Assembly: GCA_965649765.1 (NCBI GenBank) | Contig: OZ287760.1 | Coordinates: 2,976,001 to 3,040,000 of the forward strand | From: Bispira polyomma | Lineage: Eukaryota | Length of the DNA stretch: 64,000 nt | Reading direction: 5' to 3' | Shown here: piece by piece, positions 2,426-53,642 of the stretch | Layout of the letters: each line of letters begins with the position of its first letter | Position numbering within the stretch: the stretch's first letter is position 1 | Position numbers and translations under genes: made by a program | Notes under the pieces: model-generated | The model's database searches: none | Told to the model about the DNA's origin: nothing | The model's input: only the letters and a program-made list of their open reading frames with translations

Positions 2426-3725
2426 TGGGAACCAATAAACATATTTATGTACTAATTATACCTACATATGCCACTGTATCAAATGATTAAGATGGATTTC
2501 AATAAAGGTTGTGCACAATAAGATTGAGTCACAGAGTTGTTTCTTTATTTCTTTTTCTAGGTTGTCCATCCTATAATCCATGCCATCCATCTAGACCTAA
2601 GCCACACCCGAATAGAGGTAGGTAAATGGTATAAGTGACACTGAACTTCACAAAATGTGTGTTATTCGCATTGGTTACTAGCCATAGGTTACAGTCTATA
2701 GTTATATAAGGTTTACGAAGGGAAGGTATAACATTTATGAAGGATAGTACATTATGGTCCGTTCGAGGAGATCAGAAAAGTGGAGTAGTTGTTAAAAGTG
2801 TTGTGTATGCAAATGACAGACCTTGTAAAAGTTTACTTTCTGACATATATACATTAGCTAATAAGATAGTGGTTTAGTGTTGGAAGGTGTCAGTCTATCA
2901 AGCTTCTGCAAATAGTTTTATGGAAATGCATATCACTACAGTCTATACCATACATTTAGGTATTATTGAATATTTTGAAGTAACAGTATTTTTTTGACAA
3001 TATGTAATGTGAAAACGAATGACCAGATTTTAAGAAAAATCAACGATATTTTGTAATATCTATTTCTTTTAGCTTGAATATTGAAATATACACTATCTAG
3101 CAATTATTACTGCAAAATTTAAACATTCATATTCAATATTTTATCATATTTCAGTCCAATAAATGTTGTTACATTTGTTTGTATGTTCAAAAATAGTCCA
3201 GACATCATGATTTAACCTTTACACCATCTCTGCATAGTTTTAAATCACATGTATTTTCAGGATGTGGTTGTCATCATCAATATGAGTCATGTGAAAAAAA
3301 AGAACCTGGTTAGTATTGCTTAGAGGTAATTTGTTATGTTTGTATATACTGAACATATATGCTAAAGATGCTAAATATATCATTTCCCCGGTAGCAGGCT
3401 AAAGGATCCGAGGTCATGAAGACAAGGTAAGTAAACACAGAATGCGGTAATTTATTTATTAGACTAAATGTTAGAATCTACTATGTACATGGTGACTTAG
3501 GGTCACCTCAAATAAAGTTAAAACAAGATACTTAAGGTCATCTAAAGTGAAGAATTTGAATTTAGGAATAATAAATAAATTTAGTTAAAGGTCACCTTAT
3601 AATTAATTTAATGTTCGTAATTCCCGAACCAGAAAGAGTTCGAAGGTAAGGTGACCTTAAATCCAATAGAAAAATTTTGACTAGAAATTAATTTTTATGT
3701 AGCTACTGTACTGTAGCAAGACTTG

Positions 3726-5515
3726 ATAAATATGTAAGGGGTATTAGGGGTATCAACTAATACAGTAGAGGGCTGTAATCTAAACATGTAGGTTAATGCC
3801 TGTTGGTGCAATAGTAGGGAAGGCCCAAATATAGTACATTTCCTGTCGTTTGCGTTTCTGTGTACTATTTGGGTCTTCTGTGTGGCCTAGCCATTGCAGT
3901 ACACCAAACTCCATGTCTCTAACAGTATGTTGGTTAGTACTGTAATGTCTGGACACAGGGGTCAGTTTATTCTGACCAGGTTTAGTGACACTTGCTCCAT
4001 GTTCATACATTCTGTTTCTGAGGGGTCTTTTAGTCTCCCCTATGTACTGTAATCCACATTTTTTGCATGTGATTACATAAATGACATTCTTGAGTTCACA
4101 AGTAAGTCTGGGATTAGGTGGAATAGATATGCATTTGAACTGCTTATTGGTGTGGTGGCTGATGATATGATCCACTTTTTTTATGAGTGGACAATAAGTA
4201 CATTTTCCAAGTCTTGTACAAACTGTGGGTATAGTTTTAATAGTTGTACTGTTTACTGGAGGGTAGCAAATCTTAGAACTTGATAATTGGTCCCTAGGGT
4301 TGGTAATCTCCTGTAACCTATTATGGGAGGTTCAGTGAAGATATTGGCAAGGCCATCAGTATTCTGGATGATGTTCCAGTTTTTGTTGATTATTTCCCTG
4401 ATGTTGGGGTTATTTGGGTTATACTGAGTTACCATGACAGGGTTGTCCGTCACTGGTTTGGTGGTTTTTTGTAGGAGTTCATCTTGGGTGAATTGAGATG
4501 CCCTTTTATAATGTTTGGTGAGGTTCTGTTTGGAGTAGCCTCTAGCCAAATAGAACTTAGTGAGATTTTGGGCATTTTGCTCAAAGTCAACGTCTAGGGT
4601 ACAGACCCTTCTGAGACAAAGATATTGTCCATAAGGTCCTTTTGATAGGGTGACCCTTGGGTGGGCTGAGGTGTGATGGAGGTACAGGTGGGTATCTGTA
4701 GGTTTGGTGAATAGTGTTGTGATTAGGTCCCTGTTTGGGCCTAATTTAACAGTTGTGTCTAAGAAATTAATGGTGTGGTGATTGTATTCATGAGTGAATT
4801 TGATGGTTGGGTGGATGGAGTTTAGATACTCAAAAAATTGTATGAGCGAATTTTCTCCATGTGTCCAGATCATGAATATGTCATCAATAAATCTCTTATA
4901 CACAAATGGTTTAAGGGGGTAATTTTTATGGCTTTGGTTTCGAACCTGTCCATAAAAATATTGGCATAATTTGGGGCCAAGGCAGTACCCATTGCTGTGC
5001 CTCCTATTTGGAGGAAGTGGTCTCCATTAAACTCAAAGTTCATACTATGGAGTACTAATTTCAAGAGATCCAAGATGTATTTGGCTATTGGGGACTTGGT
5101 GGGGTCCTTCCTTAATTGGTCTGCTACAGCATTAATACCTTCATTATTTGGTATGTTGGTGTAGAGAGAGGACACATCAAGTGTGACTAGAAGTGATCCT
5201 TCAGGAATTGGGCCTAAGTCCTTTATTTTGTGAATGAAATCTTGGGTGTCTCTGATGTAAGACTTGGTAAGGGGGACATATTTCTTAATATGCTCATCCA
5301 CAAATTTGCTGATTCTGCAAGTAGGGTGGTTTACAGAACTACAAATAAGTCTGCCAGGTGCATTCTTCTTATGAATTTTTGGCAAGAGGTAGAATCTACC
5401 TTCAGTACAGTTTTTTGGTGTCAAGTATTCGAAGTTGTCCTCTGTGATCAACTTTGAGTTCCTTAGCTTGGTCAAGGTTTCAGTAACTTGATCAGAGATT
5501 TTATCTGTTATGTCA
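3726..5515 (-). mobile_element. Penelope-like element (Neptune-type), 5'-truncated RT + GIY-YIG endonuclease, frameshifted
   Basis: RT motifs LDVSSLYTNIP, GTAMGTALAPNYANIFM and RFIDDIF; linker CTRLGKCTYCP; C-terminal GIY-YIG NVIYVITCKKCGLQYIGET..LRNRMYEH (3780-4175). Flanked by GTAGCAAGACTTG at 3713-3725 and 5516-5528. Confidence 0.92.
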
Positions 5516-5869
5516 GTAGCAAGACTTGGCTTACCCAAGTGTTTTAGTTGAAACTACAAAAGTATTTAAAGTTACCTTGAGTATGTAGCTACTGTACTGT
5601 AGCTAAATAATGGGATCATAGCCATTATTTACAGTATAATAAGTTAGACTTCACATAGACTTAATAGAAGAGAAGACAGAAGTCAGTTTAACAAAGTATA
5701 ATTACATAATACTGTTAAGCTTACGCAATAACTTACGTTTTTGCGACAAAGGTAATATGTGAAAGGAGTGATAACTAAAATTACGTAATTGTTTTACATA
5801 ACCATTAATTATTACATAAGAGAGGAGTAGATTTAAAGTACAACCAGCCAAACCCCAATGAAGTAGGAG

Positions 5870-6873
5870 CTAGGAGGTGGAAGGCAACAAGTGATGTCTA
5901 AAGGAATCAGCTACCTGATTACCAGCGTCCACAGTATCAGTAACATATCTCCAAACGCAGTCCGACGTCCAGGTGCCATGTTTTTGAATATTTTGAATGC
6001 TTACATTATGGTTGAAGGCAAAGGTGGCACCTGAACGACGGAAAGCGTGGAAGGTGAGGCCAGAATCTTGCAGTTTAAGTTTTAGCAATATGTCTTTAAA
6101 ATGACGACGCACTCTGGTAGACACCAGAATGGCAGAATGGCGGAATCCAAACATTGTTAACCTTAATTAGGAACAATGGAGAGTTAGGTCCCGAAGGGGT
6201 GAGCCTCATTAAAGCCTTCAGTGAATCCACACGGCACAACAGTGAGCCAGGTAACCGGGGAACAGTGAGTAATTTAATTTGGTTATTACTTTGCATGGTT
6301 TTTGACCACTTGATAAGGATAACAGCCTTATCAGGGTGCAAAAGGACATCAGCTCTGGCTAGATGCCTAAGAGGAGAAAAGTGTGAGACTGAATGGGGAA
6401 CCAGGTTTGAGAGTCTAAGAAATGAGAAAAAGCTAAGCAAGTATAATGCTTTAAATACTAAACCCATGTACGTTGAGTGTGACAAAGACACGATATTTTG
6501 CAAAGTTGAAATATCTATGATATTCTTGAGTTTGACTTGAAGGGGGATGGATAGTTGTACAGCCTTCTGGTAATAGGCTATGTGCGGATCACTGAAGGCC
6601 TGAATGGGAACATTATATACTATTAATTTGGCCTTGATGGCAGACAAATAGTTTGCCATATGAGCAGGTTTGACTACATTAAAGTGTGAAACTTCTAAAA
6701 AAACCATAATATATGAAACGCAGTCACCTGATGTATAGGCCAATCCATAAAGACCATGAAGGCCAAGTACACTCTAAACATGGCTCTGTAAGACCTGGCA
6801 GTGGACCTGCAGAAGGCCAGGTGGAGCTTTTTAGTAGCATTGTGATACAGTTGTTTTTGCAAAGGAGTCTTAT
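5870..6873 (-). pseudogene. YR-A tyrosine recombinase (frameshifted)
   Basis: Catalytic motifs FLRLSNL, HAFRR, HGTW and VWRY. The frame begins right after the acceptor-like TATTTCAG with no ATG at the homologous start. Confidence 0.92.
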
Positions 6874-6919
6874 CTGAAATACAGGTTGGTACAAGGAAGA
6901 CGAGCTTAACAATTTAACA

Positions 6920-8819
6920 TTATATTGTGTTATCTAGTAGTAAATGTTGGTCAGTCACAGGGCACCACTGCACTGGACCTACAAGTGTATGTAATTTAGC
7001 ATGGTTTTGTGTAGAATTCTCCCATCTGGACAGCAGATCTGCAGTTGTGTTATGGTCACCTAATATATGTATAACTTGTAACTCAATGTCATGATGGCTA
7101 ACCAGCATAAAGATGTTACGTGAGTACAAAGCCAGGATACTATCTTTAGTACGACCATTTGCAAGTACACTAACCACAGCCTGGTTATCACATTTTATGA
7201 GCACTTTTTGGCCTTGCCAAAGGGGCCCCCACAGTTTTAAGGCAACAAAGATGTTTAGCATCTCTAGGGAGCCAATATTAAGGTTTTGTAATTCATGGGG
7301 TACTGTCAAGGCGTAGACTTTATTACCAAAGAACCCCCCATGCCTGTAAAACAGGCATCCAATTCTACAGTGGCTGTAATGGGGTTATGGTGGAAAAAAG
7401 AAACACCATTGAATTTTTTCAGAAAGGTACGAAACCAACTCAAATCTTTCATGAATTCAGTAGAGACTTTGAAAGTTTTTGCCTTGTAGTTACTCCTAAG
7501 GAGATGCAACATACGGTTCAAGAAAATTTTTGAATATTTAACACATTTTGACACGTAGAGAAGGGACCCCAATAGACATTGGAGTTCCCTTTTCGTACAA
7601 TGTTTCTTTCCAGCCCACTTGTCACACAAGGCTTGGATAGTAATTAATTTTTCCTCAGGAATAGAAGTAGTGAATTCGACCGTATCTATGACTATACCAA
7701 GACAAGTAACGCGCATGGCAGGAGGGACTAACTTTTTGTCACTCAAGGTGAGACCCAATTCTGTCAGTGGGCTTTGCAATCACTGGTATGTGGTATATAT
7801 TTTAGATGGAACTGAGCTTAAGTCAATTATAACATGACGGTTGGAAGAGCTGGACTTGTCGCGAGTCATGAAAGGGGAAGTGTATAAATTTAAAATTGGT
7901 GGCACATCAAAGGGACCATACATGGCCCCTAATTTACATTCTTCCTTCAAGTAATGCCTGACATGGTTGGGGTACTGATTAGCAGAGGAATGGTTTTTAA
8001 GATCAGACTCAAAGTCGCCCTTGTCACTACAGTCGAGAGGAAAACCGAATTTTATAAGCAAGGGGAGCTCCCAATCCCAGTAGTCCCTCAAATAGGCAGC
8101 CCACACTGGAGCATTTAATTGAGAAGCGACAGGGATCTGCAGCCCCCGGTAGTTAGGGCGGCCGTCCTCCTGCAAACACTTGTGAAGTGCAAAGACATTA
8201 GTAAAACTTCGTTTCTGAGCATTATCTGAAAGTTTTTCACCCCAGGACGACAGGGCAATGAAACCAAATTTTCCACTGTTTTGCACGTCCCATATTTTAA
8301 AAGTATCACACTCTTTAGCATCATTAAGTGTTTTGCGCTTATCAAGTGAGCGACACATGTCCAGAACATATTGATCGTCAGTTAAATCATTGTTTTCATT
8401 GGGTTTTTCCTGGGGGCTGACACCTTTGTATTTCTATTAATTGTTGTCTTTGTTGGCATCCCCAGTTCAGAAAAGGGGGCCTCTAGACAATCAACCAATT
8501 TAGTGTCACTTCCCCCCTCCCCACAAGGGGTGTCTAGCATTTCATACCGATTGGAAAGTGGTAATTGAAAACCCGTGTCAACACTTGTAGGTTTACCCCC
8601 TCCCTTACCCACGGCAGAAATTCATTTTGGGGTCTTGCCAATCACTTCATTTTTTAACAGTACATCTCTATATGATTTGTGCACAACCTGATTAAAACAA
8701 GCATACTGCTTGGAACACACATTAGTTAACAATTTAAAATCCTTAAATTCTGAATTATATACAACCTTACTAAAGACTGTCATACCCACTGCATCACTGC
8801 AGTGGGTCCTCAGTTTTTT
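6920..8819 (-). pseudogene. YR-A pol (RT/RNase H), RT catalytic core deleted
   Basis: SPFMTRDK..RHVIIDLS jumps directly to the post-YxDD region LGLTLSDKK. RNase H motifs LDAC, LEMLNI, CDNQAVV and N..ADLLSR are present. Confidence 0.9.
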
Positions 8820-38412: not shown

Positions 38413-39857
38413 ATAAGCAAGCCCCAGGGTCCATAGTGGCTGGCCTCCCATGATATGGCCACTATATAATGTAGAAAAATTCAATTGTATATCCCAGGAG
38501 TTAAATTGCAGTAGAGAAATTACATATGTGTAATCTCTCCCATTACCTTTTTAATATGCTAGTACATAACTACATACCTACAAGTATGTGGATAACTACA
38601 AGTATGTGGATAAAATATAATGCTGAATATAATATACTATAGTCAAGGCCTGGTATTAAACCTACAGGATGTGTATCAACCACATACCAGATTATTTCCA
38701 ACAGTGGGGATTAATGGAGTTGTTATCATGCTTCTATATTCACTAATGACCGCCTTCCACTTTTATGTTAGTCTTAGCCATTTTCTTTGCTTAGCCGGCA
38801 CGTATCTTGTACTTTTAAAATGCCAAGTAACTCCAAGAAATTTATGCCTTATTATTAACCCTGTGTGTCATCTGATATTTGTATGATCCAAAATAGTGGT
38901 TTGTTTATATATTTTACTAACCACTGACAACAACAAATAATAAAGTTCTTATTTTTAGCATCTTTTATGTAATTCCCTAAGAAAAGAGGAGTAATGAACA
39001 TAAAGTTCATTTTTTCAATACAGTCTATAATCTGGAAACTCGAGTTTATGTTAAGAATTTTTTTTTAAATAAATATTTTAACTGGACCGTAAAAATTGGG
39101 AGGCCTAATGAGATTTTCTCAGAAATAAGTCTTATTTCTTCACAATAAGTCTTTTTGAATTATTAGGGGTGCTGTTGGGGGGGTGGCTGTCAGACGTTTT
39201 CGTGGAAAAGCGCACAAGTCACTTGAAATTATGTATATATAGGGCTTAAGTTACACAGGCAAGAAAAGAAATGAACTTGCTGTCTGAATATATGTCTAGA
39301 TTAGTTGAATCAATTCAGAAGGGCATTTCAGAATTAAATTTTTTTTTCAAATTAGGGTCAAACTTATTTGTGTGGAAGACGCATGAATCATTTGTCATTG
39401 TCTGAATGAGACGTTCATTGGGCAGTGTTTGAAAATATAAGCCAGAGAAATATTCGCATTCATCAAAGCATTTGATGCCTAGAAACACTCCTGTAGGATC
39501 GGCTGTGCCTTCATTAGGTCATCTAGTTGATTCCTTGCTGATTCGGTTTCAGATTACAAAAGTTAAAGTCCAAAAAACACACAGATTAAAACAAAATGTA
39601 TATATTTAAAAATGGCGTCCTACCTTGTTGACTTTTAACTTAATACTGTACCCCTTAGGCTACTTGGCGGGAATTCTTCCCTTAATTGGCTTAATTGGCA
39701 CAAATCATTTCTGAGGTCACCAAGACAAGAATAGTTTTAGTAAAAGGTCTTACTAGCAGTGACCCTGCTAGCCCCTTCGGGCTACCTTACACACACATAC
39801 CATATTCGCCACAATAAAGGCCTTGGGCCCCGTTTAATCGCAACAAAAAAGCCACAA

Positions 39858-40285: not shown

Positions 40286-41120
40286 AGCCCGTGCATTCGC
40301 AAAATAAATCCAGCTCTTTATCAGTCTTAACTGTGTCTTATGCCGTGGTCATATATCTTTATTGATACTTTTAGTAGATTACAAAAATACAAACTTATGT
40401 TTACATGAAGTTAACAGTTTCCACTAATCAACACATCTACAGTTGAAGGAGAAAAAAAGAAGAAAACCAATTAATTGATAAAAAAAAATTATATATGCCT
40501 TTTTAGTTCATTAAATTTTCGGGGGCAGTGTTAAGGCATTGCCCTTGTCAGTCCTCCACGACCTTAAATCTATGGGGGTACCAGTCTGTTGGTAAGACAG
40601 GTAAAAATTTAAGTCAATAAATTAACAAACCCCATGTTGTTAAGAGAGAATTTAGGCTGTGTAATCTGATTGGTCGAAACATAAGGGACAGTTACTTACT
40701 AGTAAATAAGTTCAATTTGAATTTAGCCACAGACAAGAGTGGCAGGAATTTTCTAATTTTTACTTCTGTGATTTTGTTACTGTTTAATTTTACATCATTT
40801 TACAAAAAGTCATTTATGTTTTATATGAAGGATCTACGAGGACTATTTTAGTTTTTTAGTGTTTTATGAAACGTTCTGGAAGTGATTCTTCAGTGGCTGT
40901 GTCCTGACAGTTTTCTCCTCTCTGACAACTTCAGGCTTGATTAGCCCTCGGCCTGGGTATTAAGGGACGAAAATTATTTCTAACCTTGTCATTCATAGTA
41001 TTTAAAGCCGAGAAATAATCAAGTTGTGGAGTGGTCAGACGGGAGTGCTGTGGGCTGTTCGATTCTCGTTTCAGTGACACTTATGCAAACTGTAATTTAA
41101 AAACTTTAATAGACTTAAAA

Positions 41121-42238
41121 ATGCCACAATCGAAGGCACTGTGTAAAAAGTGTGGCAACAGACATACACCCCCAACAGTAAAAAAGTGTATTCGTGAAAA
41201 ACATATAGATACGGATATAGAACTTGAATCAGAAGGAGCTCGTGTAGTGTAGGACACTGTTGCTAAAAAACACGGGCGGAACACGCAAGATGGGAGGCAG
41301 TCGGCAGTGGAAACGGGCAAAGACCAGAACATCCAAAAGCTGATTCTACAACAACTCCAGAAGGTGACCTCACGTCTTGACGCTGTAGAAGATCAAGTGG
41401 CTGGATCTAGGACCAGACGCACGAAGGACAGTAGGAGTGGAAAGTTAAGTACAACTGTGTTAAGTCAAAAATATAAAAACAGTACTAGTGAAAATACTTC
41501 AGAGTCAGATTCCTCGGATGAGGAGCAAGTTTTGCCAAATTTATCCACTTTGAGAAGTTCTGCTTCATTTCAGCGTGGGGTCGATAATAGGCTAAGAGAA
41601 TTGGAAAAAGAAAGTCAAAATGCAGGTACTGATTCGTCAAGTAAAATAAAATCCAAAAGGGGGGCAGTTAATGTAATTGTAAAAAATAAAGTAGCTTGGC
41701 CCCAAGAGGCAATTTTAGGGGGGTTACAAGAAACAGGTTATCTTACGACCAGCTGTCCTTAACTCAATGGGTTCAGGGGTTTTGTAGAAATGTGTTAGAA
41801 GAGTCAGACAGTGAAAAAAAAGACAAAATGATAATGTACATATCGGATGTCATGGAGGACGCTACCGATTTTACATGGCAGGGCGCGAAACCAGCTCATG
41901 CTGTCCTGCTATGTGAAATGGAGCGAGGCACCCTCACATGGGATGACAGTACACGGATCGACAGGATCCGCAGGGCGCATGCCCAAAAGCATACAAACAA
42001 TAGCTTTGGCAGTGGGAAAAATTGGGAGAAAAAAACAAGATAACAACAACAAAAAGCATTGGTTTTGAAAATTCTTTCAAACGGGTACATGTCAGCATGT
42101 AAAAGACCACGAAATTGGTGGGAAGTTGCATAGACATATTTGCGCTCACTGTCTGGCCACAGGTAGGGTGTTGTCTCATCCAGAGAACGATTGTCTCTTT
42201 GCTAAGAAGTTGGGGCTCAACAGACCAAAAACGAGTGA
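41121..42238 (+). pseudogene. YR-B gag-like ORF (stops and frameshifts)
   Basis: CKKCGNRHTPPTVKKC, LILQQLQKV, KSKRG..VAWPQ, MEDATDFTWQGAK, RIRRAHAQK and a C-terminal Cys/His finger. Confidence 0.85.
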
Positions 42239-44633
42239 GGGACTGTCCTCAAGGTCTTAAACCAGAGGGCAGCTGGGGCGATAGTAGTCGGTTAGGAGTC
42301 AGCTACAGTAAAGACATAGTCAATGATTTTAGTGTACATAAAAAGCCAGCAAATGTTGATGTGAGACAGATGGTCTCAAAATTGAATAGTGATAGTATAC
42401 ACACAGTGGCAGATAGTTCTGTCAGTTTTACACAAGCTAAGGAGTTGACTAGTCTGGAAGGTTTTAATGTAAATGTACTAGAAGGTGTAAAGTATCAGAG
42501 TAAAACAAAGTATAATGACAAATACTTTTATAGTAGCAAAGTAAAACCAAAAGTGGTGGACAGTTTGTTGATTCGTTCACTAAAAGATGTAATGTGCACA
42601 TTTAGGGCAGTAACTTGTGACGTCAAGGCTAGGTCATATGCAAGCATAGTTAAAACTAAACCTAGGCTAGACAGGGCACGACAAAAGACTGGGACTCAAA
42701 TGATAGCACAAAAGGTCAGACATGGAAAAGTAAACACATGTGGTGACAATGACAGAAATGATAAGTACAAGGACAAAGTACAAAAACAAAACATGGTAAA
42801 AAGGGTGGAAAGGGAAATCCCTTCCCCAAAGCCAATAAAAGAAGTAGAGAATAATGTTGGTGATGAAACCAAGTTGGTGTTTGACATAAGTGGGTTGGAG
42901 GATAAATTCATCAATTCCATTATATTTAACAACAAAACGAAATCCAAACAAGTAGAAGCAGATTGTGACACTTTTAATCAATTCAAAAAACAGACTGAAT
43001 TCCAATTTGGTTTTATTCCACTGAGTGACCCCACCCTTCCTGACAACACGGACAGTGACAATAGAAGTATTGAATGTCCAATTAAGTGACACAATGAAGT
43101 GAAAAAAGGGGGGTGTGCTAACTTTATAGGAACTCGAATACCTGTCAACTCCCAACTCAACATAGAACAATGGAAGCTAATGTTAGAGAGTTATTGGGAA
43201 AAACAACTTCTTCAATTTTTGGAATTCGGCTTCCCTTTGGGCTTCAATAGGCAGTGTAAACTTAGTAATGACGTGGACAATCACAAGTCAGCTAAGGAAT
43301 ATGCAAAAGACATTAGTGTGTACATTAATGAAGAAAAAAAGTCATGGAGCCTTAATAGGTCCATTCATTAAAAATCCAATCAAGAATGGTCACCATTCCC
43401 CATTCATGACACGGGGAATAGGCGTGTAATTATCGACCTGAGTTGGCCAAAAGGGTGTTCAGTCAACGAGGGTGTTGACAAAGATAGTTATCTGGGGGCT
43501 GATTACAAATTGAATTTTCCCACTATTGATGACTTGGCTAGGGAACTTACCAAGTTGGGTAGGGGCGCCCATATTTACAAGCTTGACGTCAGTCACGCCT
43601 TTCGACATTTAAAGATAGATCCAATGGACTACGATTTGCTCGGGTTAAACTGGCAAGGTACCTACATTGACACTTGTCTCCCCTTAAGGAGTCGTCATGG
43701 TAGTCATAAATTATATAGACGATTTTTTGAGGTACGGAACACCCACAGTAGCAAAACGTTCATTTGAGTGCTTGTATGAAATCATGGAGAAATTAGGTCT
43801 GACAATCAGTCAAAAGAAATTGGTAGCTTCAAGTACACAAGCAGTGTGCCTTGGAATACTAGTGGACACGGTGAAAGGAACTGTATCCATACCAGAAGAA
43901 AAATTTGCAGAATTTAAATCCACAGTTGTACAATGGCAAACAAAAAATGTCTGCACAAAACAACAACTCCAGTCTCTATTAGGGCAATTACTGTATATTC
44001 ACAAATGTGTGAAACCTGCAAGGTACTTCTTGAATCGCATGTTAGAATTACTCAGAAGTATTGCAAATCCCAATAGGGTTGAGTTGAGTGAAGATTTCAA
44101 ACGTGACTTAAGATGGTTTCATAAGTTTTTACCAGATTATAATGGTATATCAATATATGGTCACAAGAGGACGGAACATACACTTGAATTAGATGCTTGC
44201 TTGCATGGGTTAGGGGGGTTGCTGGAAAAACTTGGTTTATCACCTCACAATCCCGCGTAACTTCCAAAACCTAGAAATAGTCCATCTTGAAATGATAAAC
44301 ATTCTGGTGGCTTTGAGATTATTCAGAAATTACTGGCAAGGAACAAAAGTATTGATAAAATGCGATAACCGAGCAGTAGTTCATGTCCTAAACTCGGGTA
44401 AGGCCAGAGATCCGTGCTTGTCTGCCTGCGTCAGAAATGTTTGGTATTTAGCAGCCAAGGCTGACATTGACCTGCAATATGTACATGTGTTAGACAAAAA
44501 CAACAGGACTGCTGACTTACTTTCAAGATGGACAAATTCAGTGAGTAATATAACAGAATTAAAAACACTGGTGTACAATCCAATATGGTTAGAAACATCA
44601 AGAGAGTTGACACAAATAGACAACACGTTGTAA
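42227..44633 (+). pseudogene. YR-B pol (RT/RNase H)
   Basis: RRVIIDLSWP..SVN, KLDVSHAFRHL, NYIDDF, LDAC, HLEMINI, CDNRAVV and ADLLSRW. Confidence 0.92.
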
Positions 44634-44703
44634 ATATATACCATAAGGTGTAACAATTGTAATAGGAGTTAAGTAAAAATAGATACTATACTTTGTTTTG
44701 CAG

Positions 44704-45680
44704 AATCTGGAGCATTGAAAGCTTTACAAGTAGGAGCCAACAGCAGGCTGCACACAGCTTTCAGGCCCAAGACCAGGAAATGCTACCAGAGTCTGTTTAG
44801 AACATTCATTGCTTTTTGCTTGTTTGCAGGGCTAGTATTAGAAGCTCTGGAAGTAAGAAACGTCATGTCTTTTCTAAAATACTTAGTGGTAAATAAAGTT
44901 TCTGTGCATATGATTGCTAATTATGTGTCAGCATTGAAGGCCATGAGTATAGTATATGGTCTTCCTTTTCAAATGTATGATCATCCAAAAATCAAGTATT
45001 TTCTAAAATCTATAAAAATCAACAGAACACATGTAATAGTGAAAAGAAATGTGTTGGACTTTAACACGTTGGAGCAATTAATAAAGCACTGCGTTCATAT
45101 AAGTAATTCACAAATATTCAAGGCTATATTCCTTACAGGGTTCTTTGGTTTTTTCAGACTCTCGAATTTGGCTCCACATTCAGTGAAGGAGTTTGATCCT
45201 TCACGCAATTTCACGGGTGGGGATGTGTTCTTTGAGCAAGATACTGTCAAATTGTTGCTTAAGTGGTCTAAAACCCTTCAAAATAGAGACAAAGTGCAAA
45301 TAGTAACTTTGCCCAAGTTAAAATCTTCTGTGCTCTGCCCATACGTGGCCTTGAGAAATCTCTTTAAGCTATATAGCCCAGGCAAAGATGAGCCATTGTT
45401 TCAGCTTTGCACAGCTTCTGGCAGGCAGGTGGTAACGAATTCAAGGGTAAGAAAGATGTTAGTGAGATTAAATGAAAAATTGGGATGCCCTTCAAATTTT
45501 TACACGTTTCACACGTTCCGAAGTTCAGGTGCCACTCTGGCCTAACAGGCGCAGGTTCCTATACAACAAATTAAAGAGCATGGCACCTGGACGTTGGATT
45601 GCATCTGGACATATATTCAATCTAACTCAAATAGTACACAGGTAGCCACCACCTTCCAGAGACTGCTGAATGCCAGGTAA
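44704..45680 (+). pseudogene. YR-B tyrosine recombinase (one in-frame stop at 45543)
   Basis: FFRLSNL, HTFR, HGTW and IWTY. The frame opens immediately after CTTTGTTTTGCAG. Confidence 0.92.
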
Positions 45681-46129
45681 ATGCTTCTACCCCTACCAGT
45701 TAGGTTTGAGGCTTCTGTATGTATCATATTTTACTAAAATTACAAAACTTGTAAAAGTTGAGGTCAACTGAATATAGAAACATTCACATAATAAATTCAC
45801 AAGCTACACTGGTGGGCTAGTTAACCTTAAACTGCGAGAGTTTAAGTCACATTTGGTGACCACTCAAATTAAGGTCACCTTAAATTTTTCCCTAAATTGA
45901 AACTTAAAAGTTGCCTTTAAGATAAAACCTTAACTCAAATTAAGTCTGGACTTAAATTCAAAACATTGCCTTTAAGATAAAACTTAAAGTCAAACTAAGT
46001 TCAATCTTAAACTTAAATATATTATTGACCTCAGCTTAATTCTGAATGTATATACTTAGTAGTATAGAAATTTATATTCTACACTATTTTACATATATAT
46101 TTTATAAAAATAAAATTATATATACCCTC

Positions 46130-46620
46130 ATAGATGAGTTATTTCTGACTTGGGAGTGGTAGGGACTGGTAATGATTATTGGCTGAATTGTCTCCCAGGG
46201 GTAATAAGTCGCTGATATTACCCAGATTGATTTTATCATTAAAATCTAATAAATTACAGTTATCTACATTTGACATAAATATTTTAGTTATACTGTAATT
46301 GTAGTAACCTTTCTGGTTTAAAATATCTTTGTTCAACTGATATTTTTCACGTATAACATTCATACTATTACTTAGGCATGAACCACTACCCTCCATTGTC
46401 AAGTTACCACACAGCTTCTAAATGAAATTGCTGCTATTTAATATACCATTAACAAATTTAATAACCCTTTTATGCAGATACAAATCAGCAGGCAAGTCTT
46501 CAACAGTTACCAGAATATATTTACAATGTGTTTTATTTGATAGATTCAACAATGTTCTGACACAATTTCTCCATGTTGTAAATAACAATTCCCACAATTC
46601 ACAGCCATTGATAGACTCCT
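46130..46620 (-). mobile_element. Non-LTR retrotransposon 3' fragment (same type as the 25.7-kb fragment)
   Basis: GCELW..WRNCVRTLLNLSNKTHC..LPADLYLHKRVIKF on the minus strand. Confidence 0.6.
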
Positions 46621-49440: not shown

Positions 49441-52400
49441 TAACTTACTTTTGTTTAGTTAATACTCTCGTAAAATCTACCTACTACAATTTATTTTTGT
49501 TGATTTTTTTAATGAAAACTATTATAAATCCACCTACCTAAGGTTATACTTAGAAGAAGAAGCATTTACAAGTGTGTGACAATTTAATCTAATCTAAATC
49601 AAACTTTTATTAGCGGCTCAAATCTCCATTAAAGGTTGGATTCTAAGGCGCACAATATCATGGATCATATTCAAGTCTCGTAATGGTCCTTTTTGGGGAA
49701 GGTTGTCATATATCCCAAGGAGAGACACCGGAATGAATATGAAACTATGGAGGGTAAAGGCTTCAGCCAAAAAGTAAGGTCTTAAGTTTGCTTCAAAAAG
49801 TTTGTGACACAACAAATTGTGGCGACGATAGTTACGGTGGCAACAACAAGCTGGTATTTATTTAATAAGAGGTATATCCTTGTCAGCTTTGAATAGGCAG
49901 AAATATATCTAATATTTATAGGAAAAAGAAGTGGCTATGACTTCATTATCAGGTAGAAGGACAAAACTGAAAGAGAGGCATATCGATCAAAATGTTGTCA
50001 CACAATTCAGGAAAATAAACGGGAGGTCATAAAAAGGCATTTGACAGTCACACTTTTTTGTGTAAAATCTCAAAGTGTTCTTTCTGCTTGCCTCAATGAT
50101 ATATGAGGTTTTAGATGGATAGACTTGCAATTCCGAGCCAACATACTTATCATAACATAACATAGATGATGGATGCTTCATAATTACCTACACACCATAT
50201 CTGTTCACCATCTAGAAAATATGGCCTGGAGGTGAATATGATGAAGTAAATAAATACATTTTTTTTTACATGCAAAAACAATAGCTTCGTGGTGTGCATA
50301 CCCTGAAATGAAAATGAAACAAAACTTATATTGAACAAGGTTGTCCATGAAATTGGAATGTTGTTGAGTTTCCAGGGTGGCCTTTCATCAGCTTAGAGTT
50401 ATATCGCGACGGCCAGGAATCACATCGACCCTACAGCAAGTATACCCAACATCAAGCTTTGACTCAAAGTACCGGCTTCTAGTTCTATTTTAGTGAGAAA
50501 CAACATTGTCGGGGCCATATGTGAACACGGGTGTTTTGCCTAGTGTGGCTCGGACGACACACCACTTAAAATGGTGATGATCATCTGACCCATTGAGTTG
50601 TATCTCTCCAGTGGATTTTTTGGGGGAACATTGATATAAGCCTTGGCAAACCCATAGTTGGCTGCGCCCATGAGGAAGAGCATTTTGAACCCCCCCCCCC
50701 CCTATATTATATGTATATATGTATTGTAAAAGTATGCTTTAAACAAGTATCCTATGTTCGTTATAGTATGTTTAAAATAAAAAAAACCGCCAACTTACCA
50801 TTGTACCAGTAGTAATAAGATCAAGTAAACAGCTCATGCCTAATTACATCCTAAGCTGCAACTCCGCTGTAAAAAATGGACTAAAATATGCTCATTATAT
50901 GTATATGTATGTACTGTTGGAATAAAAAAAATATATATTTTTCCAGAAAAAAAATTCTGAATCAAAATCAATCACACATATACACAAAGCATAACTATGT
51001 ATAATTATTATTATTATTATGCATTTTTAACACGCTTTATTTGATGCCAGGCATCTTCTAAAGTGCAACAGCAGAATCAGCGATCCAATCGTAAAGCCCA
51101 TGGGCATAGCAAGGTCGTAAGGGTAGGGGGGTTAACAGCTGGTTAATGAAAAAGCAACCCACCCTGTAGAATCCGACGGCAAGGGGCGCAACTCCTTTCA
51201 CCCTTCACATGGTGAAACGTGCCTTAGCCTAATGGTACTTAATATGATTGTTTGATGTGAAATCAAGTGAGGATCAATTCTCATTTATTCTTGGTCCTTA
51301 CTTGGTTGTAACTATATAAAGTAAAGTTTGTTTATGGTTAGCCTGGTCTGAAGGCTTACTTAGTTTTCTTTAATATCAGGTGCAGGCCTGTGATGTTGCT
51401 TTTTGGGCATTCTTTTAAAAAATGGGCGCTGCCATCATAAGAAAATCATATGAAAATGGCCTTCGTGGAATCGGTTAGGGAAGAAAACCCGTCCTTCACC
51501 ACTGAGGTGTGTGTGTGGGGGAAGGTATCAGATACGCCTGAGAGTATAGATAGTGGGCCATATGAACGTTAATCTATTAAACACACTGTGTGCGTGCCTG
51601 TGTGTCTTCTTTTAAACGTCAACTCTTGTTGGAGTTACACTGTGGGCCCTAGTGGTGGTTAGAAGCGCCCGGCTTTACACAATCACACTGGCCTCTTCTC
51701 ACCGAATGTGTGGGTTTGAATCCCGTCTGTTTCCTTCATATGTGGGCTAAAGTTTTAGGCTGTCGTGGTTTTACACAGTGTCTCTTCAGCACTGGTTTTC
51801 TTTTTCACCAATTGAAATCTGGCACTCATCATAATATATGACCTGATTATAATGCCGGTGGGCGAGTTGCAAAAACGATGCCGGTGCATTTGATTCAATA
51901 AGGCTGGTCGCATAACAAATGCCCCCTGGACCAGTAATAGATGCACAGCGATTTCTGTTTGAAAATCCCCAGCAAGTTGAAAGTGATGTAAAAACCCAAC
52001 CAGAAGTGGATACTGTGTCTTTTTAAGTTCACCATTACAAAAATACACGCAAAGCGGCCTCCCCCACCCACACACACGCAAACTAAATAGGCCTTTTTAT
52101 TTTCCACTTGGCCACGTATACAGAGCATACAGGAGAGTATGTGCGGGGTAGACCCGCAGGGGATAGCTAGTTCAGTGCTACCAGTATTTTCCTTAACTTA
52201 CCTCTCTGGGGTCATAACCTTTTAACGCCTCTTATAATTGCCCAGTTTGTACCTATTGACCCCAGCTTTCCCCCCTTTTCTGCAGATCTATCACTTTTTA
52301 CATTGAAGTCAAAGAGGCAACAACGCCATCTTAAATATTTTACTTTTTTAATTATATGCTGTGATATTTTTACATGATCTCTTTTATTTTGTTTGTGGTG

Positions 52401-52651
52401 CAATTGAAGGATATGTTGATTCACCTCACTGTTGTACACACTAACCAAGGATTCACGGACTGATTGTTGCTGTGTTCAAGTGTTAACTCACACTCTTGAG
52501 TCGTGCGAATATACTACTCGTGGAGCGCTGTTAAAGGAATGTATCAAATCAAATTCTAATCACAAGTTTTCACCATTTGAATAAGATTGCAATTGTTTCT
52601 AGTATATAGGCAGGTATCAAGACACCGAGTTATTATATTTGTTTAGAGGCT

Positions 52652-53642
52652 ATGGCCCAAAGGAAACTATATGAGTGCCAAAAATGTGGCACAAGTCACG
52701 TTAAACCAATAAACGAAAACTGTTCTGGCATTGCCGCGGAGGAGACTGAGGATGCTGAAACTGATACTGAAACGCAGAACTCTGTTCAGGCCAGTGACGG
52801 TGTGGCTTCGGTCAATATTAGTATGCAAATTCTCAAAGAACTGAGAGTTCTTAGTGGACGCATAATGCTAGTCGAGCAGAAAGTCGCTCACGGCGAACAT
52901 AGAGCCCAGTTCTCGAGGGCAACCTCGAGTCTGTAGGTCCCTGTCCAGACGCCCCAGACGCAGTTAGAAGAACTACTGGTACTTACACTCCAGACACTGA
53001 GAACTTCACATTCCCCCCCAGACAGCTGTTGACTCCAGACTGAAGGAACTCATCGCAATTAACGAGTCAGGTACATGCAAATCGCAGCGTGGGGGAACAG
53101 AAACTGTCAGGGTCAAAAATAAAATTTCTTGGCCACAAAGCTACATCCTTGGGCGGCAAAACAAATCCCGTGTTTCCTATGACTCTCTCTCAATGGCACA
53201 ATGGGTGGCTGGCTTTGCCAGCATAGCCAGGGAAGAAACTAACATTGATACTAAAAACCATATGCTTGAATACTTGGCAGATCTAATGGAAGACTCACAT
53301 GACTTTTCTTGGGCTGCTGCTAAGGGCAGCCATGCTGTATTGTTATGCAAAATGGAGGAGGGAAAAGTGTCTTGGGGGGACTCCCATAAATTAGATCGCA
53401 TTCGAAGGGCTCACGCCCAAAAAGTTATGACTCAAAATTACAATAGTAGTAGCAATCCCAAGAAAAGTCATGACAAAGCCATTCCATGCAGGTATTACCA
53501 GAAAGGAACTTGCCCCCAGAAAGGGGAACATGAAACTAGGGGGGTTACATATAGCCATGTATGCAGCGAATGTTTCAAGACGGGGCGCTCTTACCCCCAT
53601 CCCAGCAAGGACTGCCGAAAGAATCCCACAAAAAACGAGTAA
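52652..53642 (+). pseudogene. YR-C gag-like ORF
   Basis: CQKCGTSHVKPINENC, KSQRGG..WPQ, MEDSHDFSWAAAK and CRYYQKGTC..HVCSEC..HPSKDC. Confidence 0.87.

Follow-up and report, generated by a model that had tools for sequence, protein, structure and literature searches.

A palindrome array behind the recombinase gene of a degenerate Ngaro-like retrotransposon in Bispira polyomma: a candidate cis signal

Retrotransposons of the window

The window, a 64,000-nucleotide stretch of contig OZ287760.1 of Bispira polyomma, carries three degenerate retrotransposons (A, B, and C) with gag, RT/RNase H, and tyrosine recombinase (YR) sequences (Table 1). Introns, simple repeats, and host-like frames give the window the look of animal DNA. 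The B copy is dead, having a stop codon ahead of the catalytic Tyr of YR-B and a fragmented pol frame. A Penelope-like element (RT, GIY-YIG) was found inserted in the tail of A at 3696-5603 (minus strand), flanked by an exact 22-bp direct repeat, and in C an exact 38-bp copy (55932-55969) of a segment 4.6 kb upstream (51274-51311) was observed at the deletion that removes most of YR-C.

Table 1. Features of elements A, B, and C and of the array of element B, in order of position
Feature	Position	Strand	Remarks
Element A	~10200 to 3400	-	gag, RT/RNase H, YR
Array of element A	3440-3670	-	Downstream of Penelope-like insert
Element B, degenerate Ngaro-like YR retrotransposon	40519-46170	+	From ORF order; both ends tentative
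gag-like gene, several frameshifted pieces	41121-42200	+	Lowest E 1e-31 in tblastn with the gag pieces of elements A and C
pol region in pieces, RT and RNase H in 3' part	42103-44633	+	RVT_3, RT_RNaseH
Splice-acceptor-like stretch opening the YR frame	44688-44703	+	Pyrimidine run and CAG; by eye
Tyrosine recombinase YR-B	44704-45680	+	In-frame stop at 45543-45545, ahead of catalytic Tyr
Post-YR motif CCTAC...GG(G)TTTG(G)	45690-45711	+	By eye; first 8 nt pair with 46157-46164
First dyad unit	45755-45769	+	Predicted left arm of 13-bp array-closing stem
Half-consensus unit, ACCTTA half only	45817-45830	+	
Variant unit TTTAAGTC plus GTCAC/GTGAC hairpin	45838-45861	+	TTTAAGTC pairs with 45949-45959
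Hairpin GTCAC-ATTTG-GTGAC	45846-45860	+	
GGTGACC	45855-45861	+	Predicted partner 45873-45879
Perfect 15-bp dyad TTAAGGTCACCTTAA	45869-45883	+	7-bp arms, 1-nt centre
55-bp tandem duplication with exact 18-mer	45906-45960 / 45961-46015	+	76% identical
Dyad TTAAGTC-TG-GACTTAA	45940-45955	+	Inside first duplication copy only
Last unit	46025-46037	+	Right arm of closing stem; private partner of first unit
Candidate 3' terminal segment, possible B1 repeat	46095-46170	+	AATAAA at 46109, TGGTAGGG at 46157
Element C	~52150 to 56600	+	YR mostly deleted
Array of element C	56140-56510	+	Flanked by long imperfect inverted arms

Searches with YR-B detected 221 homologues among 713 candidates, and the 120 of these that were listed all came from ENA. 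PF00589 was matched in 29 of 41 aligned YR members. The YR-B protein alone matched only SAM-like integrase domains, at scores below their cut-offs, and a PDB search with it produced no match. A metagenome scan for close relatives with accompanying DNA yielded 13 distant loci with 25 to 37% YR identity; scans of viral and other genomes found none.

Ngaro retrotransposons are described as members of the order DIRS with the layout A1-ORFs-B1-A2-B2 (PMC9210276, PMC8547959, PMC3783388), and the missing methyltransferase is given as the character that separates them from DIRS-like and PAT-like elements (PMC9210276, PMC3783388, PMC7192593). Element B unites gag-like, RT/RNase H, and YR frames in that order, as do elements of the order DIRS, and has a PF00589-type YR. 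As in Ngaro, there is no methyltransferase behind the RNase H of B, because the frame stops ∼35 residues past ADLLSR; the frame ends 34 to 36 residues past AD.LSR in A, B, C, and four related loci having the motif. B departs from the DIRS-like and PAT-like superfamilies in this character. The inverted terminal repeats and internal complementary region (ICR) found in the DIRS-like superfamily likewise had no counterpart in A, B, or C beyond imperfect end matches of 11 to 17 nt, which were not significant against shuffles. Unlike Ngaro, however, A, B, and C showed no split direct repeats of the A1-ORFs-B1-A2-B2 type within the window, although gapped alignments for terminal repeats were dominated by AT-rich noise. 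Direct terminal repeats were detected in relatives L003, L007, L009, L011, and L013 (26 to 33% YR identity), that of L003 being 710 bp long and 100% identical. As the split repeats are not visible in the window copies, B is called Ngaro-like and is not filed as a member of the superfamily; the YR and RT/RH trees described below were built from sequences other than named Ngaro references.

The ends of B were approached through contig joints, of which 15 of 119 were listed. One of these, 40518->46171, can be read as an empty site, placing the element at ∼40519-46170. Another, 40804->46109 (three contigs), could represent an A-B junction; on that reading the array would be unique 3' sequence immediately upstream of a short B repeat. 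Either joint could instead be mis-mapping between AT-rich look-alikes, 40472-40536 and 46098-46164 being 70% similar. Summed contig depth, which derives from three sequencing runs of one study and is not a copy number, was 834 in the array bin, 1640 to 1840 in YR, ∼3100 at 46159-46592, and 19310 at 40517-40733 (X1). No RNA run was listed as containing the stretch, which has no bearing on expression.

Several further features were observed around the coding regions. A pyrimidine run followed by AG opens the YR frame in all seven elements looked at by eye (44688-44703 in B, 6860-6930 on the minus strand in A, 55765-55815 in C, and L001, L002, L003, and L005), so the YR may be made by splicing. 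An 18-bp imperfect stem in the YR coding sequence links the FRRSGA and HGTW codons in B (45517-45534 with 45581-45598) and A (6042-6025 with 5978-5961, minus strand); the distant loci did not show it in this form, and contig depth peaks on its bin. Long rod-like folds immediately precede the start of gag in B (40858-41081) and C (52477-52641). The tile at 40801 had a folding z of -7.5, while the rule-defined 300 nt upstream of gag yielded -2.8 in B and no signal in C or A. Short, imperfect inverted matches linking the two ends of each element (10004-9991/3401-3388, 40548-40580/46118-46168, and 52170-52186/56556-56572) could be recombinase arms at an end junction, at a level not significant against shuffles. 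An isolated segment at 39550-39796 (minus strand), 59% like the 5' end of C and with no coding frames, is a possible solo terminal repeat. L007 (3221-3526) and L008 (6407-6510), compared by eye, appear to be one locus in two forms, one having the second A and B repeats and the other lacking them, a difference apparently due to recombination between B copies or to assembly collapse.

The palindrome array of element B

Of 424 overlapping 301-nt tiles of the window, the region 45740-46040, whose boundaries were picked by eye, has the highest hairpin density. Five perfect hairpins (arms of at least 6 bp, with at least 2 G/C) were counted in it; shuffles had 0.28 on average, and none of 500 reached five. 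The longest exact repeat in the array is 18 nt, the maximum among 500 shuffles being 14. RNA folding of the same region gave a z of -5.61 (0/100 shuffles), and the tail of B, delimited by rule as 350 nt starting from the post-YR motif, gave -5.45 (0/30). In a blind folding scan of the window (213 tiles, 8 shuffles each), five other tiles were found at z <= -5.6; the array was split between two tiles, neither of which was among the 25 lowest. An Rfam search of the region at E values up to 1 found no match. The palindrome array of B was confirmed as real and beyond chance.

The dyad strings listed by the first-pass annotation were all present at their coordinates when checked against the letters of the window, although the reading of several units had to be revised. 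The dyad at 45756-45769 was correctly located but wrongly divided, having 6-bp arms with a 2-nt centre. The string CTAGTTAACCTTAA at 45817 exists, but it is not a stand-alone dyad; the consensus is confined to its right half, and the left half carries three mismatches. Similarly, the 18-mer at 45911 and 45966 does occur twice but is only the best-kept part of the larger 55-bp tandem duplication. The idea that the array grows by unit duplication was not supported as a general mechanism, as this duplication is single and the dyad has been lost from its second copy. Identity at offset 55 outside the duplication was 25%, against a baseline of 30%, and a regular 55-bp periodicity of the array was rejected.

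Sibling contigs across the array were too few for a comparison of dyad and spacer conservation, and two carried rearrangements. One contig (joint 45768->45853) matches as far as the first dyad and resumes from 45853; in another (joint 45886->45893), 39 letters replace 6 just behind the perfect dyad. None of the 40 substitutions listed, out of 1777, lies inside the array.

A core shared by the three tails and its predicted folding

In all three elements the array is preceded by the YR stop and followed by an AATAAA (3460 in A, 46109 in B, and 56465 in C). TAAGGT/ACCTTA was the top-ranked 6-mer among those common to the three tails, with 4, 4, and 9 copies in A, B, and C, compared with 0.56 per kb in the remainder of the window, and these counts were matched by 1, 1, and 0 of 2000 shuffles; the tail regions for this test were delimited after the motif had already been seen. 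The 13-bp core TAAGGT-N-ACCTTA occurs without mismatch at exactly three sites in the window, one in each tail: at 3647 in A, within TTAAGGTCACCTTAA in B, and at 56397 in C. The elements themselves are highly diverged, with 45 to 48% identity among the RT/RH proteins and 36% between the YRs of A and B, a tree path of ∼2.2 changes per site. In blastn, the three tails shared no alignable homology in their non-coding sequence.

In the YR tree, which used 20 of the 120 listed homologues and omitted C as too short, A and B fell in one clade (support 98/97) apart from loci without the motif; A forms a long branch there, and the rows were mapped onto a member of the A/B clade. The RT/RH tree grouped A, B, and C at 73/82, a grouping that was not starred (L001, having no RT, was omitted). 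The core was missing from seven of eight distant tails examined, the one match being L011, which points to a clade-specific or host-specific motif. The earlier proposal that retention of the dyad argues for selection drew indirect support from the enrichment of the core in diverged tails whose other non-coding homology is gone. Within the scope of three elements from one host, sharing of the core across diverged elements argues for selection, and the array was probably a signal needed by the elements, because two distant relatives keep the motif at the same place.

Dyads in viral contigs appeared to be a separate matter. Two-dyad matches at seven loci were rejected as unrelated, L014 being a phage terminase/portal region and L020 a small Rep-encoding virus; ORFs were read in these two, and the five others share the L014 sequence. 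Three similar dyads lie upstream of the phage terminase/portal module in L014-L019, and the look-alike at 167-210 of L020 is the hairpin stem of a putative replication origin. In A and L005, TTAYGYAA repeats were seen (five copies in 5604-5870, minus strand, and three in L005 4300-4380), which resemble bZIP sites; as a second array they were rejected, an unbiased 6-mer test being matched by 77/200 and 11/200 shuffles.

The dyads had been described as separate small hairpins, a view that the predicted ensemble contradicts: units pair with one another over 20 to 280 nt. In B, the closing stem 45755-45767:46025-46037 has 13 bp with one G-U (p 0.96), 45838-45848:45949-45959 forms 11 bp (p 0.96), and 45855-45861:45873-45879 forms 7 bp (p 1.00), with an outermost 8-bp closure between the post-YR motif and 46157-46164 (p 0.98). 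In C an 11-bp stem (56209-56219:56439-56449) is predicted within a 13-bp AT-rich stem, and in A a 12-bp stem (3658-3647:3599-3588) accompanies a 13-bp AT-rich stem. Inter-unit stems of 7 to 13 bp with p of 0.95 to 1.00 were thus predicted in A, B, and C alike. The outermost units are best matched to each other, forming a 9-bp run together against 6 with foreign units in B (45765:46027) and an 11-bp run against 7 in C (56213:56445), and in both elements their deviations from the consensus match within each pair. Such private partners could reflect a recent inverted duplication, with no need for selection. Over all 22 units, stems within elements were no longer than stems between elements (longest runs 12, 11, 9, and 9 versus 12, 12, 9, and 9), and repeated self-palindromic units pair mutually by default.

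The contribution of the spacers was examined in a control in which the units were held fixed and the spacers shuffled (40 shuffles). Extra structure was clear in C (z of -3.96 and -4.32, 0/40), slight in B (-1.35, 3/40 sense; -2.23, 0/40 antisense), and not detected in A (-0.3; 16/40 and 17/40). For rule-defined tails, sense folding z values were -5.45 in B, -3.58 in C, and -1.59 in A, compared with -0.67, -1.36, and +0.15 for three coding controls. Folding energy was stronger for the sense strand in B and for the antisense strand in C (z of -7.5 as RNA and -6.4 as DNA), and the stem-flanking G-T and A-C counts over the three tails were 5 and 10. Neither folding energy nor wobble pairs gave a strand signal: B and C disagree, and the G-T/A-C lean is not significant. 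The arms of C are unequally spaced (2 and 44 nt versus 35 and 7 nt) and carry separate side hairpins. The distant tails of L003, L005, L007, and L009 had folding z values of -3.9, -6.1, -2.2, and -3.2 (20 shuffles each). Since these fold with other sequences, structured tails look general among the relatives and the TAAGGT motif local.

Possible functions of the array

The array was probably functional in the ancestral elements. Our preferred explanation, to which we give a little less than an even chance, is a clade-specific cis signal that was read on single-stranded RNA or cDNA. It would sit in the 3' non-coding region of one Ngaro-like YR retrotransposon clade and would have been maintained by selection as long as the elements were active, before the B copy died. 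The array would act when the strand is single, as genomic RNA or minus-strand cDNA, and the fold may then present AAGGT-N-ACCTT, a short duplex, in several copies to a reader. The likeliest reader is a protein of the element (Gag, RT, or YR), and the reading would serve packaging or reverse transcription. More speculatively, the fold could pull upstream sequence onto the first poly(A) signal and so permit read-through to the second B repeat.

Retroviruses are described as masking a poly(A) site by RNA structure, as in the HIV-1 polyA hairpin (PMC2645353) and in foamy virus (PMC3694450). The present elements resemble them in that a repeated terminus requires one poly(A) signal to be suppressed and in that the AATAAA is predicted to be buried in A and C; they differ in having a predicted long-range multibranch fold rather than a local hairpin. 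The predicted cost of opening AATAAA was 5.25 kcal/mol in A and 5.95 kcal/mol in C, values surpassed at 4 and 2, respectively, of the 155 AATAAA sites used as background, but only 1.34 kcal/mol in B, between the median and the upper quartile of the background. With a larger window of sequence the costs were 5.54 (A), 5.15 (C), and 1.37 (B) kcal/mol (116 of the 155 background sites sampled), that of B again falling between the median and the upper quartile. Poly(A) masking was therefore rejected as a general rule; it fits two of the three elements and, at both window sizes, fails in the one under study, whose AATAAA is not buried. In A and C, ACTTACC(T) was observed at 3432 (minus strand) and 56523, 28 and 58 nt behind AATAAA, and was absent at the corresponding place in B; we take it to read like the U1 snRNA 5' end or an opposite-strand splice donor.

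The units might instead be double-stranded DNA binding sites for a host factor or an element-protein dimer, forming an enhancer-like or accessory array, with folding as a by-product. The three families share a sequence core and not merely a shape, they share one host, and with the units fixed the folding signal is lost in A and largely lost in B, all of which this explanation accommodates. One strand of the perfect dyad reads TAAGGTCA, a half-site in gel shifts reported for an invertebrate thyroid receptor (PMC2045677), and the tails of A, B, and C contain AGGTCA 4, 3, and 1 times. The likeness to a nuclear-receptor half-site is, however, incomplete, because the conserved core is TAAGGT and the units of C mostly lack the CA: C has nine TAAGGT cores but one AGGTCA, and a varying base after TAAGGT makes a poor receptor site. 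The dyads also overlap around a 1-nt centre, which to our knowledge is not a standard receptor spacing. As binding sites in duplex DNA leave both the long non-motif arms of C and the matched deviations of the outer units unexplained, we consider them unlikely, although they deserve serious attention. A functionless array, produced by RT template switching on a short palindrome and sharing its core as an ancestral residue or by convergence, would account for the one recent 55-bp duplication and for private partners, which are expected from inverted duplication. The array-bin depth of 834 is below that of the flanking high-copy bins and, together with the sibling contig carrying 39 letters for 6, suggests that the region tolerates change. 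Neutrality is nevertheless improbable in our judgment: A and B are separated by ∼2.2 changes per site and other non-coding similarity is gone, yet the 13-bp core is mismatch-free in all three elements, and the unequal spacing and side hairpins of the C arms are unlike a plain inverted copy.

The combination of a tyrosine recombinase with an adjacent fold-back sequence also recalls the integron attC site, in which recombination is described as employing the folded bottom strand (PMC8876359). By this analogy the array would fold on single-stranded cDNA into duplex sites for the element YR. The cDNA of DIRS-1 is reported to be single-stranded (PMC7192593), C folds much better as antisense, and the flanking mismatches show a non-significant bias toward minus-strand G-T. 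Folding of B favours the sense strand, however, and the array is internal, at least 130 nt from the inferred 3' end, where a crossover would be expected at the end junction. Moreover, unlike attC, this is a eukaryotic retroelement with several nested units and no evidence of a crossover in the array, and we regard the attC-like role as very doubtful. Core sites of tyrosine recombinases (lox/dif type) consist of two 11- to 13-bp inverted arms around a 6- to 8-bp spacer; the dyads, with 6- to 7-bp arms and a 1-nt centre, were rejected as sites of this kind. A bolder scheme, a long shot in our estimation, is a fold-back switch of interchangeable palindromes: the RNA would hide the first poly(A) signal, thereby allowing transcription of the split repeats, and single-stranded cDNA would rebuild duplex sites for YR/RT, as a eukaryotic counterpart of attC.

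The preferred cis signal can also be compared with the ICR of DIRS-1-type elements, a single stretch of 88 bp described as exactly complementary to both termini; the cDNA of DIRS-1 is described as linear and single-stranded (PMC7192593). Like the ICR, the array of B would act as a non-coding signal behind the YR, through base pairing within a single-stranded intermediate, and the 8-bp pairing predicted for the post-YR motif involves the inferred 3' end. In contrast to elements with an ICR, which have inverted terminal repeats and a methyltransferase, B has repeated short dyads that pair mutually and has neither of these. No dyad array or structured 3' region of Ngaro elements was described in the articles and literature listings consulted. 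As the element class is known and the B copy inactive, the find is a candidate cis signal and not a new kind of element. Priming, RNA packaging, and end completion are largely open in DIRS-order elements, the primer of DIRS-1 being given as unknown in the account consulted (PMC7192593), and a short motif kept across families with diverged non-coding DNA offers a concrete target for binding and mutation.

The post-YR motif, kept even more widely, is a second such target. It reads CCTAC...GGGTTTGG and was found by eye at 45690-45711 in B, at 5870-5845 (minus strand) in A, at 56120-56150 in C, and in five of the 13 related loci (L001, L003, L004, L005, and L010), thus spanning elements at 26 to 38% YR identity, a wider reach than that of the dyad. 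The motif is a candidate priming signal by analogy with an LTR, which follows its polypurine tract. In L003, the 710-bp terminal repeat begins directly behind the motif, at 6970.
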